IMG/VR virus record: IMGVR_UViG_3300020030_000131
Location: 1-6,105 of that record
DNA length: 6,105 nt
Reading direction: 5' to 3' (one strand)
Source of the DNA: a virus
The notes beneath the pieces were generated by a model, which saw only the letters and a program-made list of their open reading frames with translations, searched no databases and was not told where the DNA came from. Shown here one piece after another: positions 1-6,105 of the stretch. Both the position numbers and the translations under genes were made by a program. Each line of letters starts with the position of its first letter. The first letter of the stretch is position 1.

Positions 1-105
1 TGCCTCCTCCAGCATCGCCGTTATACGCGAAAATTCGTATCTGCTGGCGTTGGTGATTTTCTTGGCTATATGCCTCGTCCTTCTGCTCGTGTTTCGTCGT
101 GGTCT
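1..105. repeat. Terminal redundancy, copy 1. It is identical to 6001..6105, the signature of a circular genome that was linearised or assembled with overlap.
   Basis: Direct comparison shows all 105 nt of 1-105 equal to 6001-6105. The reading frame of the replication gene is continuous across the junction. Confidence 0.95.
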
Positions 106-450
106 TATTTCGATTTTGAGAGGAGGATCAATTATAATTACTCGATTCCTCGATATTACCTTAAATATCTTAAACCGGAGGACGAAGTCGTTCGTTCGAT
201 TACCGCTGCTGATTCTTATTCACATTTTAGCAAGTCTCCTCTGGTTAAGCGTGTTGTGTCTTTGTGTATTGAGCGGTTCAACCTCAATTCCTCCGTATCC
301 TGTAGAGCGTCGTATACGTGGGAGCAAAAGCAAATAATACGTTTTTCTGCCTCCTCTCGGAAGATGCCCGATTTCGACCCTCCTACTTGGTTGGATCTGG
401 ACATTCTTCAGTTTTGGAGAGATCATTATAAACTTCAACTAAACATTTAA
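1..450 (+). CDS. VP4: Replication initiator protein (rolling-circle HUH endonuclease, VP4-like), C-terminal part. It continues from 5380..6000 across the circular junction. The full product is 356 aa.
   Basis: Frame 1 is open from position 1 (CLLQHRRYTRKFVSAGVGDFLGYMPRP...) to the TAA at 448-450. It is the same frame as the ORF leaving the window at 6105. It contains a SIPRYYLKYL segment, which I recall as typical of microvirus Rep C-terminal regions. The ORF-track entry 70..450 is only the internal-Met fragment. Confidence 0.9.
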   Translation, partial: CLLQHRRYTRKFVSAGVGDFLGYMPRPSARVSSWSYFDFERRINYNYSIPRYYLKYLKPEDEVVRSITAADSYSHFSKSPLVKRVVSLCIERFNLNSSVSCRASYTWEQKQIIRFSASSRKMPDFDPPTWLDLDILQFWRDHYKLQLNI

Positions 451-453
451 TTT

Positions 454-2253
454 ATGGGTAAACAACCTTTCATTTCACATTCTGTAAATGGTTACTCTCG
501 CTACGATGTTCCTGAGAGTAAGGCCTTTACGTGTACACCGGGTATTCTGTACCCAGTGCGGATCGATTTTATTAATGCTCGTGACCGTGTGTCTATCGAG
601 CAGGGCATTGATGTTCGCAGCAATCCTCTTGCTGTTCCGACCTTTAACCCTTATACTATTCGACTTCATCGTTTTTGGGTGCCTCTTCAGCTGTATCATC
701 CTGAGTTGAGAACAAACAGCAGCAAGTTTGATATGAACGAGTTGAGTTTGAATTGGATTACCGCTCTTGTTGGTACTTCGGGCACGACCTCCCCTAATTC
801 TGCTCTTGGAACTTCGCGAGCTTACCCCAATTCGCTTATGTCTTGGCTCCGCGTTTCTAATAAGACATCGCTGCAGCTTTCTAACCAACCTCCTTATACC
901 GCCAGTCTTCCCTCCGGTGCTTCGGTTAATCAGTGGGCAAATGCTGATACATATTTAGCTTATTGGGATATCGTTCGCAATTATTATGGTTATTCACAGT
1001 GGGGGTTATATTCGATTGCGTGGCCTGCTTCCTGGTCGATTCTGCCAGATTCTTACTCTTTTGCTGACTCTGCTACGTTTTTTAAGCAAGAATATGCTAA
1101 CCTAGAATTTCTTGATGCTTATTTTGAGAGTCAGTTCTACCCGTCAGCTGTTTCGAGTTCAAATAACACGTTCAATAGGGGTAATTTGTTTTTCCAGATA
1201 ATCAATTCTCAGCTTCCGTCGGGAGGCGATCAAGATGGTTATCCCGTTTCTACTACGCTGCCTAGTGGTGCTCATATTATCTCCGGCAGCGGCCCAGCTG
1301 ATCAGTTTTCTGACGATATCGGTAGTACTTCTGTCACTGGTATTTCGGCTTTCTTGTTTGCGCATCCGATGGCTGTTATACCTTCGAATCCTGATCGTTT
1401 TAGCCGCCTTATTCCCGTGGGCTCTTCTTCTGCTGTTTCTATGTCTGGCGTCAGCACCATCCCGCAGTTGGCTATTGCTTCTCGTCTTCAGGAATACAAG
1501 GATTTGCTCGGCGCTGGTGGTAATCGTTATAGCGATTGGCTGGAGACGTTTTTTGCCTCTAAAATTGAGCACGTCGATAGGCCTAAACTCCTCTTTAGCG
1601 CGTCGCAGACCGTTAACGTGCAGATTGTTATGAATCAAGCCGGGCAAAATAATTTAGCGGTTTCGTCCCCTAACGGCCCTCTCGGTCAACAAGGAGGAGC
1701 AATTGCTTTTAACGATCGTTTGGGTCGTCGGCAGTCTTATTATTTTCGCGAGCCTGGTTACATGATCGATATGCTAAGTATCCGCCCTGTTTATTTTTGG
1801 AGTGGCGTCACGCCGGATTATTTGAATTATCAAGGCTCGGATTATTTCAACCCCATTTATAATGATATTGGTTATCAGGATGTTCCTGCTGCGCGTCTTT
1901 TTAGTAATGCTGCGGGCTCGGACCTTGGTCTCGCAGTCGCTTATGAGCCTTGCTTCAACGAGTTTCGTTCGTCTTATGATGAGGTATTAGGCTCACTGTC
2001 TTCGTATCCCGCTCCTGTAGTAGGCACTCCTAAGGCTCTTTACTCGTATTGGGTGCAGCAGCGTTCTCTCGGTTTCTCGTATGTGGGTTCCGCTTCTGCT
2101 AATTATTACCCTGCACTCTTTGTGGATATGGCGCAAGTCAATTCCCCCTTTTCTTCTAATACAGAGGATAACTTCTTTGTGAATTTGTCTTATGCCGTTC
2201 AGAAGAAGAATCTTATTAATAAAACCTTTGCAACTCGTTTGTCTAATCGTTAA
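454..2253 (+). CDS. VP1: Major capsid protein (Microviridae F/VP1 family), 599 aa
   Basis: This is the largest ORF and starts 3 nt after the Rep stop. The N-terminal pattern (short segment, then GILYPVRIDFINARDRVSIEQGIDVRSNPLAVPTFNPYTIRLHRFWVPLQLY) parallels the conserved microvirus capsid N-terminus (..G.L.P....EVLPGD......R..P...P......FFVP.RL.W). Third codon positions are strongly T-biased. Size is appropriate for VP1. Confidence 0.9.
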   Translation: MGKQPFISHSVNGYSRYDVPESKAFTCTPGILYPVRIDFINARDRVSIEQGIDVRSNPLAVPTFNPYTIRLHRFWVPLQLYHPELRTNSSKFDMNELSLNWITALVGTSGTTSPNSALGTSRAYPNSLMSWLRVSNKTSLQLSNQPPYTASLPSGASVNQWANADTYLAYWDIVRNYYGYSQWGLYSIAWPASWSILPDSYSFADSATFFKQEYANLEFLDAYFESQFYPSAVSSSNNTFNRGNLFFQIINSQLPSGGDQDGYPVSTTLPSGAHIISGSGPADQFSDDIGSTSVTGISAFLFAHPMAVIPSNPDRFSRLIPVGSSSAVSMSGVSTIPQLAIASRLQEYKDLLGAGGNRYSDWLETFFASKIEHVDRPKLLFSASQTVNVQIVMNQAGQNNLAVSSPNGPLGQQGGAIAFNDRLGRRQSYYFREPGYMIDMLSIRPVYFWSGVTPDYLNYQGSDYFNPIYNDIGYQDVPAARLFSNAAGSDLGLAVAYEPCFNEFRSSYDEVLGSLSSYPAPVVGTPKALYSYWVQQRSLGFSYVGSASANYYPALFVDMAQVNSPFSSNTEDNFFVNLSYAVQKKNLINKTFATRLSNR

Positions 2254-2265
2254 TACATTGATTTT

Positions 2266-2562
2266 ATGGCACTTGATTGGCTTCTTGAAGACGCTCCCGC
2301 CTATATTTCTCGCGGTCAGCGTATTCTTTCTGTTCTCAATGGTTCTGGTTCCGTTGACGTTCTTCCTGGTCGTCCGGATGTGGTGGCGGAATCGGCTGAT
2401 TTTGATAAGGGTGAGAGATTCAATCCCGAAATTGATTTCGACCCTAATTCATTCTCTCGTATGGATAAGTTTGACGGCCTCGAGGTTGGACAGGAACTTA
2501 TTGATTCAGAGTTGGATAAGTCGACGCCTACTTCTAAATCTTCCAATTCTGAAGAAAAATAG
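2266..2562 (+). CDS. Hypothetical small acidic protein (98 aa), a possible scaffolding-type protein
   Basis: ATG start 12 nt after the VP1 stop. T-rich third positions match the hallmark genes. By my count there are about 21 Asp/Glu against about 10 Arg/Lys. I recognise no motif. Confidence 0.6.
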   Translation: MALDWLLEDAPAYISRGQRILSVLNGSGSVDVLPGRPDVVAESADFDKGERFNPEIDFDPNSFSRMDKFDGLEVGQELIDSELDKSTPTSKSSNSEEK

Positions 2563-2632
2563 TATATCCTTTACTTGACGATATATGTTACGTGCGCGGA
2601 CCCCTTCTGAAAGAGTCCGTGAATTTCTGAAG
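2547..2632 (+). repeat. Three direct copies of TTCTGAAR within 86 nt (2547-2554 TTCTGAAG, 2605-2612 TTCTGAAA, 2625-2632 TTCTGAAG)
   Basis: Read directly. In my manual scan the only other full TTCTGAA-type match in the window was one reverse-complement copy inside VP2. The last two copies are 20 nt apart. Possible iteron or protein-binding repeat. Confidence 0.45.
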
Positions 2633-2806
2633 GTTATTGGTAACGACTGCAGGAGAGGCCGCGCATTTTTCTATCGTTCTTTATTCAATTGTTTACACCA
2701 TTGTGGCGCGGTGACGCATTTCGCGGTTCGGAGAACCGCCCCGAACGAAGTGAGGGTGCGGCACCGTAGCTTCCCTTTAAATTTTCAATATCATGTCAGA
2801 CGCTAA
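2585..2806 (+). CDS. Doubtful ORF: Arg-rich, very basic 73-aa protein (it would be a J/VP8-like DNA-binding protein if real)
   Basis: ATG-initiated ORF with about 16 Arg in 73 aa. Its T3 codon bias is clearly weaker than in neighbouring genes. It is filled with stable hairpins, contains a terminator-like structure, and overlaps the next ORF by 14 nt. Coding and non-coding readings cannot be separated by eye. Confidence 0.25.
   Translation: MLRARTPSERVREFLKVIGNDCRRGRAFFYRSLFNCLHHCGAVTHFAVRRTAPNEVRVRHRSFPLNFQYHVRR
2593..2670 (+). promoter_or_regulatory. Long imperfect hairpin (about 73 nt) with a GC-rich base, followed immediately by TTTTT. Candidate intrinsic terminator and/or ssDNA structural element.
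   Basis: Seven perfect bp: TGCGCGG 2593-2599 pairs with CCGCGCA 2659-2665. After bulged A2600, 2601-2609 pairs with 2650-2658 (one C.A mismatch, one T.G pair). Then AGTC 2614-2617 pairs with GACT 2645-2648. A T5 run lies at 2666-2670. Confidence 0.5.
2723..2765 (+). promoter_or_regulatory. Cluster of three overlapping, mutually exclusive GC-rich hairpins just upstream of the 63-aa ORF
   Basis: Hairpin A: GCGGTTC 2723-2729 pairs with GAACCGC 2733-2739 (7 bp, loop GGA). Hairpin B: CCGCCCC 2736-2742 pairs with GGG(T)GCGG 2754-2761 (7 bp, one bulge, 11-nt loop). Hairpin C: GGTG 2755-2758 pairs with CACC 2762-2765, part of the 11-nt palindrome GGTGCGGCACC. A/B and B/C share nucleotides. G+C is 46/70 in 2701-2770, against 28/70 in a VP1 sample (461-530). 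Confidence 0.5.
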
Positions 2807-2984
2807 ACAACCTTTCTATAAATCAAAGGCTTTTTGGACGCTTGTTTCATCCATTATCGCCGCGTTGGCTGCTTTTTTTCTCTCTTCGTGTGCTGCACAG
2901 GCAAGAATGCAGCGCAGTGGTGTTCACGTCGACACTGTGCGTGTTGATTATATCATTCGTTCTAATAATTTAACACACTTGTAG
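2793..2984 (+). CDS. Small membrane-targeted protein, putative lipoprotein (63 aa; predicted mature lipopeptide 31 aa)
   Basis: The N-terminus has Lys-containing n-region residues (K5, K10, K12), a hydrophobic core FWTLVSSIIAALAAFF, and then L-S-S-C. That matches the lipobox pattern [LVI][ASTVI][GAS]C, with Cys33 encoded by TGT at 2889-2891. The stop is 1 nt before the VP2 ATG. Third codon positions are moderately T-rich. Confidence 0.6.
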   Translation: MSDAKQPFYKSKAFWTLVSSIIAALAAFFLSSCAAQARMQRSGVHVDTVRVDYIIRSNNLTHL

Positions 2985-2985
2985 T

Positions 2986-4359
2986 ATGCCTGTTCCCGTT
3001 GCTGCTCCCGCTGCCGCATCTTTTGGCCAGGCTCTTGGACAGTCTGCTGCATCTTCCGGCGCTACTGGCCTGATATCTGGTGCACTCGGCCAACTTTTTG
3101 GTGGAATGAACGCTCGTCGCCAATGGCGTTTTCAGCAGAAGCAGATGGCTCTTCAGCAGAAATATGCTTTGGAGCAGATGCAGAGGCAGTCCGAGCTTTC
3201 TTATTCTAATTGGCAAAGGCAGTTTGATTATGAAAATTCATATAATGACCCCTCAAAGGTCTTTGATCGTTATTTGAAGGCTGGCGTAACCCCTGCTGCC
3301 GTTTTAGGCTCTTCGGGTGTTGGAGTGAACGCCACTATGTCCGGCGGTTCTGCGGGCATGCCCTCCGCTTCCGGCCCTTCCGGTGGCGCTCCCGTCAGTC
3401 CTGGTGCTTTTTCCCCTGGTGATCCCGCTGCTATCGCGCAGAATATGGTTGCGCAATCAACGGTAAGCCGTAACGATGCTGCTGCTAATCTTGATAACGC
3501 TCAAGCTCGATCAATTGATGACCAGAATGTTGGTAAACAGATGTACACTCTTATGGCTGAGACTCGTGTAGCCCTAGATCAGGCTGCTGCAAAGCATAAT
3601 TTAGCTGTTTCGGATGTTCTTAAAGTGCAGGAGGCTATTGAGAAAAATGCTCTTTTTATCTCTGATACTACTCTTTTGAGCGCTATTGCCGAGAAGAAGA
3701 GTCAAGCTGCTCTTGTTGATGCACAGGTCCGCCGCTTGAATATCGAGAATGAGCATTTAGGTGCTGTCCTGTCGGCTCAAGCCTTCATGATGAATACTCA
3801 AGGTGCTCTTAATCAAGTTCTTGGCGAGCAGGCTCGCGAAGTCATAGAGTCTTTGCATTTAAATAATCTCGATACTGCTAATGAGATCGCGCGTAATTGG
3901 GAAAAGCGTTTCGACGTTGAAATTCCGAATCCTCAGTATTCAGAAAATCTTAGAAGTAAAAACCCCATCACTCGCGGGAACCCTGGCCCTAAGACTTTCA
4001 AGATTTCGATGTCGCTTAAAGACTTTTACGATAAAACTATTATAAACGAAGCAAACGCATCTGATTTTCTCCCTGAGCAGGCTCGCATTGCACTTCGTAA
4101 TGCAAAGGTTGATCCGTATGTCGAGATTTCGAAGGCCCTTATAGGTGTCGCTGGTAGTCTTGTTGGTGCTGGCATTATACGAGGTGGAATGTCGCGCGCG
4201 GCCGGCACGATTTCCGCCGGCGGCTCTTCTAGTAGTTCTGCAGGCTCTTCGTTGACGACTCGTTATGATTCGAACGGAAATGTTGTTGGTTATGCTAAAA
4301 CTGAGATGAATCGTAGCGGTCATTCGAGTTCGTACAATAATTCTCGTCATTCACGTTGA
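2986..4359 (+). CDS. VP2: DNA pilot / minor capsid protein (Microviridae H/VP2-like), 457 aa
   Basis: Second-largest ORF, downstream of the capsid gene. It has an Ala/Gly-rich hydrophobic N-terminus and a Gln/Arg-rich helical segment (RRQWRFQQKQMALQQKYALEQMQRQSE). The segment NSYNDPSKVFDRYLKAGVTPAAVLG resembles the conserved ..AG(L/V)NP..-type motif I recall in microvirus pilot proteins. A long heptad-like Ala/Gln/Leu-rich centre is followed by a Gly-rich hydrophobic stretch and a Ser-rich tail. Confidence 0.8.
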   Translation: MPVPVAAPAAASFGQALGQSAASSGATGLISGALGQLFGGMNARRQWRFQQKQMALQQKYALEQMQRQSELSYSNWQRQFDYENSYNDPSKVFDRYLKAGVTPAAVLGSSGVGVNATMSGGSAGMPSASGPSGGAPVSPGAFSPGDPAAIAQNMVAQSTVSRNDAAANLDNAQARSIDDQNVGKQMYTLMAETRVALDQAAAKHNLAVSDVLKVQEAIEKNALFISDTTLLSAIAEKKSQAALVDAQVRRLNIENEHLGAVLSAQAFMMNTQGALNQVLGEQAREVIESLHLNNLDTANEIARNWEKRFDVEIPNPQYSENLRSKNPITRGNPGPKTFKISMSLKDFYDKTIINEANASDFLPEQARIALRNAKVDPYVEISKALIGVAGSLVGAGIIRGGMSRAAGTISAGGSSSSSAGSSLTTRYDSNGNVVGYAKTEMNRSGHSSSYNNSRHSR

Positions 4360-4364
4360 TTTTT

Positions 4365-4395
4365 TTTGGAGCTTCATTTTTTATTGTTATATTTG
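4365..4395 (+). promoter_or_regulatory. Bacteroides/Bacteroidota-type promoter: -33 TTTG (4365-4368), 19-nt spacer, -7 TATATTTG (4388-4395, matching TAnnTTTG)
   Basis: Exact match to both published consensus elements for Bacteroides primary-sigma promoters, with spacing in the reported 19-21 nt range. It lies in the 63-nt VP2-to-next-ORF intergenic region, about 28 nt upstream of the ATG at 4423. It is the only intergenic exact TAnnTTTG I found in the window. Confidence 0.6.
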
Positions 4396-4422
4396 CATTG
4401 TCAAACCAATAATCTTATTATT

Positions 4423-4751: not shown

Positions 4752-5075
4752 ATGACACAGGTTCATATTGTTATTCGCCGCATCAATCCGGCTTTTAAGA
4801 TTGATTTAGTACAGGTAGGCTATATTAAAGATGGGCATTTCGAAATGCTTCATCTTAGTGATCTTGCTCATACGCCTATTTCTGACTATATAGAGCACTC
4901 TAGTATTGCTGCCTCGCCTTATATTGATCATTGTCATATTCCTAGTCTTGCAGCGGCTCTGGTTACCTGCCCTGATTTCTCGATCGATTTTTTCGATAAT
5001 ACGCTCGTTTTTATGTTTAGTACTAATCTGACTCACGATGAAATCACGTCGAAAGAAAAAGGGGAAGGGGACTAA
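4752..5075 (+). CDS. Hypothetical protein (107 aa), His- and Asp-rich, with no recognisable motif
   Basis: ATG in the same ATTATTATGA context. It is the only long ORF in this interval on the coding strand. It ends 45 nt before the strong terminator. Confidence 0.55.
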   Translation: MTQVHIVIRRINPAFKIDLVQVGYIKDGHFEMLHLSDLAHTPISDYIEHSSIAASPYIDHCHIPSLAAALVTCPDFSIDFFDNTLVFMFSTNLTHDEITSKEKGEGD

Positions 5076-5119
5076 AGTAGTCACCCGCCCGCTCGGTGGA
5101 AGAGTCCTCTGACTCGTTG

Positions 5120-5154
5120 GGCCTGCGGGGGAAATCTCTTGCAGGCCTTTTTTT
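5120..5154 (+). terminator. Rho-independent (intrinsic) terminator
   Basis: GGCCTGC 5120-5126 pairs with GCAGGCC 5141-5147. In RNA the stem can extend inward with G-C and G.U pairs (5127-5131 with 5136-5140, loop AAAT). It is followed directly by T7 at 5148-5154. A smaller hairpin, GAGTC 5102-5106 with GACTC 5111-5115, sits immediately upstream. Confidence 0.8.
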
Positions 5155-5380: not shown

Positions 5381-6105
5381 TGGCCTGCTCTTCACCCATA
5401 TGGATACGAAATCGTCGTTACTTCGACAAGAAAAACCCTTGTCGTAACGGTTCTGATGTTGCCAAGTCCGCCTTAGCTCTTCGACCCTGGGACATTGCCC
5501 GCCAGTGGCTGATGGTTCCCTGTGGAAAGTGCGAAGACTGCTTGCGTCGGCAGCGTAATGATTGGTTTGTTCGGCTGGAGCGGGAGCTCGCCTGCTGCAA
5601 GGCTAATAACCAGCAGGCTATTTTTATTACGATAACTATTGCTCCGAGGTATTACAATGAAGCCTTGCTCGACCCCTCTCGATTCATCCGCCGTTTCAAT
5701 GAGCGCTTGCGACATAAACTCGGCCATTCGTTCAAGCATGCCTTTTTCCAGGAGTTCGGCACTCATCCGGAGATGGGAAATGAGCCTCGATTACATTTTC
5801 ATGGCTTTCTGTTTGGCACAAACGTTCTTTATAATACCATTCGCTCTGCCGTTCGAGATCTCGGCTTTGTGTGGCTCGCGAAAGCCACCCATAGACGCGC
5901 TCGCTATTGTGTGAAGTATGTTACTAAACAAATTCAATTTAACCCCGAGGAGATCTCGGATAAATATGTTACTGTAGATGGAAGACTTACACCTTTATCT
6001 TGCCTCCTCCAGCATCGCCGTTATACGCGAAAATTCGTATCTGCTGGCGTTGGTGATTTTCTTGGCTATATGCCTCGTCCTTCTGCTCGTGTTTCGTCGT
6101 GGTCT
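5380..6105 (+). CDS. VP4: Replication initiator protein (rolling-circle HUH endonuclease, VP4-like), N-terminal part. The ORF has no stop within the window and continues at position 1. The last 105 nt duplicate 1..105.
   Basis: My own translation of frame 1 gives an in-frame TAA at 5365-5367 and the first ATG at 5380. The product begins MACSSPIWIRN...WLMVPCGKCEDCLRRQRNDWFVRLE. Motif I is FITITI (5623-5640). The HUH motif is HFH within RLHFHGFLF (5794-5802). The catalytic two-tyrosine motif is YCVKYVTK (5905-5928; compare YxxKYxxK in phiX174 protein A). Confidence 0.92.
   Translation, partial: MACSSPIWIRNRRYFDKKNPCRNGSDVAKSALALRPWDIARQWLMVPCGKCEDCLRRQRNDWFVRLERELACCKANNQQAIFITITIAPRYYNEALLDPSRFIRRFNERLRHKLGHSFKHAFFQEFGTHPEMGNEPRLHFHGFLFGTNVLYNTIRSAVRDLGFVWLAKATHRRARYCVKYVTKQIQFNPEEISDKYVTVDGRLTPLSCLLQHRRYTRKFVSAGVGDFLGYMPRPSARVSSWS
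6001..6105. repeat. Terminal redundancy, copy 2 (identical to 1..105)
   Basis: Identical over all 105 nt by direct comparison. Confidence 0.95.

Follow-up and report, generated by a model that had tools for sequence, protein, structure and literature searches.

A folded non-coding element conserved across a clade of gut microviruses and its candidate role as a complementary-strand origin

The window, that is, the whole stretch of 6,105 nt analysed here, is a circular microvirus genome of about 6000 nt with positions 1-105 duplicated at 6001-6105. All of its genes lie on the + strand (Table 1). The segment singled out in an earlier note on this DNA (2563-2792) is the gap separating the 98-aa ORF from the 63-aa ORF. 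A promoter scan found no sigma-70-like site in 2550-2800 and, on reading the sequence by eye, the TTGACG of the 5' box has no -10 partner at a usable spacing. The Rfam scan proposed in that note was carried out with the covariance models of Rfam 15 under permissive filters and gave no match in 2500-2800, even at E <= 1; the sole Rfam match in the window, CrcZ at 4296-4396, is a chance one. Scans for tRNA and tmRNA returned nothing relevant, and a consensus terminator scan called a canonical terminator at 5119-5148.

Table 1. Genes of the window and parts of the region between the 98-aa and 63-aa ORFs
Feature	Position	Strand	Remarks
Rep	spans origin of record	+	
Capsid protein VP1	454-2253	+	Pfam Phage_F, PHROG 514
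98-aa ORF	2266-2562	+	
P-alpha 5' strand, AGAAAAAT	2553-2560	+	overlaps last codons and first stop-codon base of ORF 2266-2562
Variable spacer	2561-2568	+	final two bases of TAG stop and 6 further nt; varies more than any other part of the element
5' box, CTTTACTTGACGATATATGYTACGT	2569-2593	+	near-invariant, unpaired bulge between P-alpha and P1 (alignments A3 and A4, k-mer scan)
P1 GC clamp, 5' strand	2594-2602	+	pairs with 2657-2664
P2 hairpin	2603-2633	+	stem 2603-2612/2624-2633; loop GAGTNCGTGAA at 2613-2623
Conserved joining segment, TTATTGGTAACGACTGCAGGAGA	2634-2656	+	2648-2655 can pair with 2604-2611 (alternative helix)
P1 3' strand	2657-2664	+	
P-alpha 3' strand, ATTTTTCT	2665-2672	+	the "T5" run
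3' tail, ATCGTTCTTTA	2673-2683	+	conserved, unpaired; end of the element
Module left flank, TTCAATTGTTTACACCATTG	2684-2703	+	kept without the GC core in L029 and L047 (footprint)
Accessory GC-rich hairpin module	2704-2769	+	outer stem 2710-2718/2757-2765; inner hairpin 2723-2729/2733-2739, loop GGA
Module right flank and downstream ORF leader	2770-2792	+	same CTTTAAATTTT...ATG context as directly after the element in relatives without the module
63-aa membrane- or lipoprotein-like ORF	2793-2984	+	start codon at 2793
Pilot protein VP2	2986-4359	+	PHROG 8689
Small ORFs	3' of VP2	+	

The segment was originally described as the only compositionally deviant part of the genome. Our recount agrees with the reported G+C of 46/70 in 2701-2770, but a count of 46 G+C or more is also reached by 70-nt windows near 3301-3400, 4151 and 5051, the richest of them (51/70 at 3338) in the first of these regions. 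As a whole, the 230-nt segment has a G+C content of 47.4% vs 45.3% for the genome. The long imperfect hairpin at 2593-2670, with its GC clamp TGCGCGG/CCGCGCA followed by T5, is present, and the 11-nt palindrome GGTGCGGCACC is located at 2755. Three TTCTGAAR motifs are also found (at 2547, 2605 and 2625), but the pair inside the element corresponds to the two sides of the near-palindromic P2 stem and not to independent repeats. Folding energy alone is unremarkable: 2563-2792 has a z-score of -3.1 under DNA and of -1.6 under RNA parameters, and the core element one of -2.3 under both. In a genome-wide scan with 130-nt windows, those at 2276, 5331 and 5851 score lower, several of the lower-scoring windows being coding. 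Sequence alone makes a weak case; it is conservation and covariation that lift the region above chance.

Conservation defines a core, 2553-2683, that is a 131-base folded non-coding element distinct from the GC-rich module downstream of it. The 230 nt are folded and non-coding, in line with one of the earlier readings, but they comprise two separate modules (2553-2683 and 2704-2769) and not one element. About 150 related genomes, with capsid protein identities down to ~40%, carry a single copy of the core on the gene strand at 72-100% identity. A BLAST search against GenBank phages detected 2550-2685, conserved at 72-93%, in 63 microvirus records, often with unaligned flanks; the records come from faeces of pigs, rodents, lemurs, tortoises, marmots, dogs, birds and humans. 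These 63 records compare with 66 that have a VP1 match at E <= 1e-30 (to ~38% identity), and the organism-name make-up of the two sets is the same. An 18-mer from the 3' end of the element occurs in more than 119 IMG/VR contigs of about 6 kb. The covariance model of alignment A4 has one match in the window (2549-2683, + strand, 161.5 bits), and all 49 of the 49 loci fetched by VP1 similarity alone contain exactly one full match, on the VP1 strand and with 149-163 bits. The same model finds no match in phiHBP1 or in the phiX174 origin fragment (L202, 4200-4400). The one cultured Bacteroides microvirus, phiHBP1, is therefore no model for the clade: it lacks the element and has a VP1 of just 23% identity.

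A survey of 14-mers in 148 genomes revealed only two ultra-conserved islands, the core element and positions 8-65 within the Rep gene. The Rep island has diverged in Poophage MBI-2016a and Dulem virus 210, both of which keep the core element. Plasmid sequences gave no significant match to the element, and the 5' box has no match among 185,579 species-representative bacterial and archaeal genomes, in which no integrated VP1 relatives were found either. A temperate lifestyle of the clade was considered and set aside, there being no host or provirus match; the hosts are probably Bacteroidota. In relatives, the next start codon usually lies 1-22 nt past the 3' tail, and in most of the IMG/VR contigs with the 18-mer the downstream ORF starts 12-13 nt after ...CGTTCTTTA. 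Two unusual contigs deserve mention. L179 consists of two related genomes fused via an identical 121-nt element; because it is a chimera joined through the element, it is uninformative on natural multimers or a nick site. Identical element copies thus explain an assembly artefact, namely chimeric contigs of this kind. The over-length contig L051 contains only a chance copy of the 18-mer.

The earlier note had proposed looking for compensatory stem changes in relatives, and such changes are indeed found in P-alpha, P1 and P2. In the outermost helix, P-alpha (2553-2560/2665-2672), five of eight pairs show changes on both sides, with pairing in 96% of cells, among the 31 diverse sequences of A4. 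Cognate P-alpha duplexes have a mean energy of -8.4 kcal/mol vs -5.4 kcal/mol for non-cognate ones, and none of 20000 permutations is as good. The two strands differ by lineage: AGAAAAAT/ATTTTTCT, AGAAAAAG/CTTTTTCT, AGAAAAAC/GTTTTTCT, AAAGAAAT/ATTTCTTT, AGAGAAAA/TTTTCTCT, AAGAAAAT/ATTTTCTT, AAAGAAAG/CTTTCTTT, AGAAAGC/GCTTTCT and AAAAGTTT/AAACTTTT. In other words, the T-run after the clamp pairs with the purine run that ends the upstream ORF, and both covary across lineages. This lends no support to the suggestion that the hairpin and its T5 form a terminator. P-alpha and P1 share a continuous 3' strand, while the 5' strand is broken by a bulge of ~33 nt made up of the variable spacer and then the near-invariant box CTTTACTNGAYRATATATGNTAYGT. 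In P1, the pair 2599-2659 is GC in 107, GU in 14 and AU in 11 of the 132 distinct sequences of alignment A3, and distant relatives have GCGGAAA/TTTCCGC and GCGGCAA/TTGCCGC. Inside P1 lies a domain formed by P2 and the conserved joining segment, the sequence of which varies with its base pairing preserved. Seven of nine P2 pairs change on both sides (A3, n=132), one of them, for example, being UA in 90 and CG in 35 sequences, and an unbiased mutual-information scan places mostly P2 pairs at the top. The loop of P2 is similar to a U-N-C-G loop whose second position is free. For the whole structure, covariation in A4 amounts to 0.354, compared with 0.140 +/- 0.011 after shuffling and 0.06-0.13 for slid partners. 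Together with the highest conservation in the genome, these many compensatory helix changes support the original idea of a non-coding structural element.

The fold also has a changeable part. In the distant lineages L174, L175, L177, L184 and L045 the domain inside P1 has been swapped for other hairpins, with P-alpha, the box, P1 and the tail kept. An additional pair, 2608-2651, covaries as well (TA 86, GC 10, GT 9, TG 8, CG 5). It belongs to the alternative helix 2604-2611/2648-2655, which competes with P2 and in which the other pairs vary solely via G.U wobble, and it may reflect a second conformation or a tertiary contact. Two further pairings were rejected: an outer pairing ACGATA/TATCGT obtained from folding, whose mismatches are uncompensated, and a bulge hairpin TATATC/GATATA, in which the spacer strand varies freely and the partner is invariant.

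The GC-rich part (2684-2792) has a very different distribution. It is found in only ~20 fetched relatives and three GenBank records, always at the same site and with 88-99% identity. Some relatives with 90% VP1 identity and some with ~70% carry the module; other 90% relatives are without it. In relatives lacking the module, the CTTTAAATTTT...ATG context follows the element directly. L122, L142, L152, L046 and L179 have unrelated hairpins in the same slot and other lineages have nothing there, so the junction 3' of the element is a variable site for optional hairpins. A target-site duplication (CTTTA) around the module was ruled out, being inconsistent among copies. In 19 distinct copies of the module, compensatory double changes occur at six pairs, with pairing in 98% of cells. 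The inner hairpin GCGGTTC-GGA-GAACCGC (2723-2739) and its enclosing stem covary, but the other hairpins of the three that had been described as mutually exclusive are without compensatory support; since the rival helix GTTCGG/CCGAAC shows no double changes in the module copies, they reduce to one fold. The proposal that alternative GC hairpins gate the lipoprotein ORF finds no support in a module that is optional and whose covariation fits a single fold.

The same DNA can be read as a 73-aa ORF (2585-2806), which had been put forward as an Arg-rich J/VP8-like gene for a DNA-condensing protein. The ORF exists as described, except that it has 15 Arg and not about 16. Its ATG at 2585 is invariant and, in 70 of 170 distinct relatives, the frame is open into the downstream ORF. 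Nevertheless, the frame spans both modules and crosses an insertion absent from ~85% of relatives. In 163 distinct relatives the frame from ATG 2585 stops after 8 to 110 codons and, despite the 70/170 run-ons, its phase and stop position differ among lineages. Because element lengths range over 113-117 nt, frame-shifting indels of 1-2 nt are evidently tolerated. The proposed test of codon periodicity was also negative: entropy by codon position is 0.14/0.14/0.21 in 111 same-length copies, compared with 0.51/0.26/0.92 in the control, the last 30 codons of the upstream ORF. Element substitutions are compensatory stem changes that are non-synonymous in the 73-aa frame, and the ORF has no Pfam or PHROG match. 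Its Arg richness results from CGN codons read through GC-rich stems. The coding reading is thus contradicted and we reject it, leaving it next to no probability. ORFs called across the region are spurious, and several GenBank records annotate a "hypothetical protein" there. A leader-peptide or translational-coupling role of the box ATG was likewise dismissed, as there is no consistent frame or stop.

On which strand, and in which nucleic acid, does the element fold? In the element G.T pairs are frequent and A.C pairs, their counterparts on the opposite strand, are rare; this assigns the fold to the + strand. Strand alone cannot decide between DNA and RNA, since + is both the packaged DNA and the mRNA sense. 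Single-sequence folding with DNA parameters recovers P-alpha in 25 and P2 in 14 of 31 representatives, whereas RNA parameters recover them in 11 and 2, respectively. The covariation-supported hairpin of the extra module is also the DNA minimum-energy fold, and the RNA minimum-energy fold of the element is the G.U-rich alternative helix. As evidence, this match between DNA folding and covariation is weak, given its dependence on the energy models.

Of the explanations considered, the likeliest is that 2553-2683 is a cis-acting complementary-strand (minus-strand) origin on the packaged ssDNA. We put the probability of this tentative reading at roughly 0.4. A complementary-strand signal is needed by every microvirus, and that of phiX174 is a hairpin ahead of gene G. 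The element would act as a folded single strand of viral (+) DNA, and the origin would let host enzymes prime the conversion of the incoming ssDNA circle to the double-stranded replicative form. Its hairpins might hold single-strand binding protein off the region, and host primase or RNA polymerase could read the invariant unpaired blocks (the 5' box, the joining segment and the YTATCG-containing tail), at which a short RNA primer would be made. Consistent with such a role, the element is non-coding, pairs within the packaged strand and has a fixed orientation. We favour a DNA-level role because the signal is obligatory in microviruses and the element is the best-conserved non-coding DNA of the clade, because DNA parameters recover the supported helices far more often than RNA parameters, and because a test went against each of the terminator, leader-peptide and coupling readings. 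Invariant unpaired blocks combined with a changeable inner part also resemble plasmid single-strand origins, which are ~160 nt long, orientation-specific and heavily folded, with conserved sequence blocks (PMC5703833). A further reason is the resemblance to conserved intergenic hairpins of other microviruses, which covary and have been read as minus-strand signals (PMC9865509). Homology to a described sso or ssi was not detected in the plasmid search or with Rfam. A counterpoint is that the element lies inside a probable polycistronic transcript and the same fold would therefore exist in RNA. Some of its traits are RNA-like, namely the position of 2608-2651 in the G.U-rich alternative helix, the U-N-C-G-like loop of P2 and, in most lineages, the tail directly before the start codon.

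The element might instead work at the mRNA level, as a leaky terminator, a stabiliser of the 3' end of the capsid message, a processing site or a regulator of translation of the next gene, which we regard as rather unlikely. Nearly all lineages have a GC clamp with a U-rich run behind it, yet the U-run covaries as a helix strand, is replaced by AAACTTTT in L200 and follows a clamp that encloses 60-90 nt, unlike the canonical terminator at 5119-5148; the rho-independent terminator scan made no call at the element. In most lineages the 5' strand of P-alpha and the end of the upstream ORF overlap, with the next start codon usually 1-22 nt past the tail. However, P-alpha lies off the ORF end in Dulem virus 210, bajarodmic virus 860 and the Poophages, ~20 genomes tolerate an insertion of ~100 nt between tail and start codon, and, relative to the downstream gene, neither the frame nor the stop of the 5'-box ATG is consistent. 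Two features would suit a role at the mRNA level: the G.U-rich alternative helix with 2608-2651 is the RNA minimum-energy fold, and the second position of the apical loop GAGU-N-CG-UGAA is free. On the other hand, RNA parameters seldom predict the best-supported helices, P2 and P-alpha, and Rfam has no match. The inner domain is moreover replaced wholesale in L174, L175 and L184, making a conserved ligand-binding or catalytic core less likely. A structured regulatory RNA with two conformations nevertheless forms one half of a different view, in which the element is not a priming signal at all but either such an RNA or a self-splinting Rep (+) origin; taken together, we consider this pair of options unlikely. 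In the RNA version, 2603-2612 would have two alternative partners, both selected, and the toggle would control the pilot/lysis gene block in Bacteroidota phages. In the DNA version, a nick would fall in the bulged 5' box, P-alpha would pair the DNA on both sides of it and the ends would be held for Rep-mediated closure.

A Rep-dependent (+) origin or termination site, nicked in the unpaired 5' box, is in our view quite improbable. Here P-alpha would pair the sequence upstream of the nick with sequence 3' of P1 and thereby hold the ends of the displaced strand for re-circularisation. Such a site would agree with the near-invariant box being a single-stranded bulge between two helices, and with co-inheritance of the element with the whole clade, Rep included. 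The box also contains ACTTGA, the hexamer that spans the phiX174 nick site. This likeness is not significant, though: 17.5% of the 40-nt windows in the genome score equally, ACTTGA also occurs at 2271, and the hexamer is all that is shared with the 30-nt phiX174 origin CAACTTGATATTAATAACACTATAGACCAC. In addition, the third base of CTTG varies (T, C or A), and a big + strand-specific domain with G.T pairs would be unexpected for a nick site on supercoiled duplex DNA. The phiX174 (+) origin lies within gene A and, by analogy, the Rep-gene island 8-65 offers another candidate. The Rep gene also has a second CTTGRC..TATATG motif, at 59-75, which was discarded since it evolves as ordinary codons. 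Finally, conserved arms that flank a variable centre might suggest a folded ssDNA attachment site that mimics dif for XerCD integration, a mechanism used by CTXphi and proposed for Bacteroidetes microvirus proviruses, and microvirus proviruses with flanking dif-like sites are known (PMC3091885). We give this very little credence, as the 5' box has no match and VP1 relatives show no integration in the 185,579 representative genomes. Nor is the element known to bear any convincing likeness to E. coli dif.

Microviruses are among the most abundant phages in animal guts but, to our knowledge, their cis replication signals outside the phiX174/G4 group are essentially unmapped. The element provides a sharply defined clade-wide candidate that may guide the study of how gut microvirus replication starts, and it could be used as a nucleotide marker of the clade. 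If the self-splinting origin were true, it would give non-phiX microviruses their first defined origin and represent a new organisation of rolling-circle termination; if the RNA toggle were true, it would represent a new class of structured regulatory RNA.

It is instructive to compare the element with known systems. The primosome assembly (n'/PriA) hairpins of phiX174 and the primase-recognition hairpins of G4 are likewise non-coding, on the + strand and in a gap downstream of the capsid module; they too occur in single copy, and a cis requirement would apply to the element as well. However, the element has no sequence similarity to them and differs in its stacked helices, 33-nt conserved bulge, closed inner domain and conserved tail. 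The probable host phylum is also different, and the priming role of the element is only a candidate one. Rho-independent terminators and mRNA-stabilising hairpins of phiX174 intergenic regions share with it a GC-rich stem followed by a T-run after the capsid block, whereas in the element the T-run belongs to a covarying helix, 60-90 nt lie within the stem and the unpaired flanks are invariant. Single-strand origins of rolling-circle plasmids (ssoA, ssoU) are similar in size (~130-160 nt), orientation-specific and much folded, with short conserved blocks amid varying sequence (PMC5703833), but the element is phage-borne and has no plasmid homology. Intergenic hairpins of reekeekee- and roodoodooviruses are, like the element, clade-specific and conserved at the nucleotide level, with compensatory stems and identical loops (PMC9865509), and both are tentatively tied to minus-strand initiation. 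Those hairpins are simple, 13-64 nt long and located between Cap and Rep (PMC9865509), whereas the element, from an unrelated clade, has multiple helices and long conserved unpaired blocks. The literature that we searched contains no description of the element. Folded intergenic cis elements of ssDNA replicons are thus known as such; what appears to be new here is the bulged-box architecture and its clade-wide invariance.

The slot between the conserved folded non-coding element and the next start codon is filled in other lineages by unrelated hairpins, such as GACCTCTATGG...CCATGGAGGTC, while in loci L029 and L047 it holds the flanks of the accessory GC-rich hairpin module only, the core being absent. 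In the 63-aa ORF found downstream of the element, a segment resembling a signal peptide contains a lipobox-like LSSC, and the conserved N-terminus (MSDxKQPFYKSKAFWTL) carries a KKFWTL-type motif that recurs across lineages. Lineages L192-L197 lack this ORF and have the DNA pilot protein gene VP2 directly 3' of the element. In GenBank records PQ006814, MZ089787, PQ006256, PQ006779 and others, the element itself is overlapped by a 'hypothetical protein' or by the start of a 'DNA pilot protein'. These gene calls are probably spurious or have a start placed too early.

Positions of features in the window and of slot hairpins in other viral loci
Feature	Position	Strand	Setting
95-aa ORF	50-337	+	+1 frame relative to Rep, over the Rep C-terminal region
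63-aa ORF	2793-2984		downstream of the element
Canonical strong terminator, the sole one in the genome	5119-5148		3' of ORF 4752-5075
Slot hairpins, L122, L142, L152	73 nt after the element		
Slot hairpin, L046	74 nt after the element		

The over-length contig L179 (IMGVR_UViG_3300020029_000058, 10519 nt) consists of two related genomes, 77-92% identical, arranged head to tail, and the 121-nt element is present in identical form both where they meet and at the contig end. L179 looks like an assembly chimera that arose from this ultra-conserved element. Three unrelated viral contigs (L015, L022 and L051) also contain the 18-mer from the 3' end of the element, TTTTTCTATCGTTCTTTA, but lack the remainder of the element. 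The covariance model of the element found no match in L015 and reached E-values of only about 0.7-0.9 in L022 and L051; therefore, the 18-mer matches are due to chance.

The terminator has a GC-rich stem of 13 bp and a loop of 4 nt, followed by T7. No Shine-Dalgarno sequence precedes any gene start in the window, the gene leaders are AT-rich, and at 4365-4395 TTTG (4365-4368) is followed after 19 nt by TATATTTG (4388-4395), in agreement with the Bacteroides promoter consensus. Together, these sequence features hint at a Bacteroidota host. A search of 185,579 species-representative genomes found no host or provirus for this microvirus clade.

A second ultra-conserved nucleotide island, CAACATCGCCGTTATACGCGAAAATTCGTATCTGCTGGCGTTGGTGATTTTC, lies within the Rep (VP4) coding region at 8-65 (= 6008-6065). 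Among 131 distinct sequences, all three codon positions are frozen, and the island can form a hairpin, CGCC..ATACG-CGAAAATT-CGTAT..GGCG. Poophage MBI-2016a and Dulem virus 210 carry diverged versions of the island. It is a candidate (+) origin by analogy with phiX174, in which the (+) origin is located inside the Rep gene; the constraint may alternatively stem from an overprinted ORF. The 95-aa ORF begins with a strongly hydrophobic N-terminus (MVIFLAICLVLLLVF...) and its frame remains open in the consensus of relatives. This ORF may represent an overprinted membrane or lysis gene.
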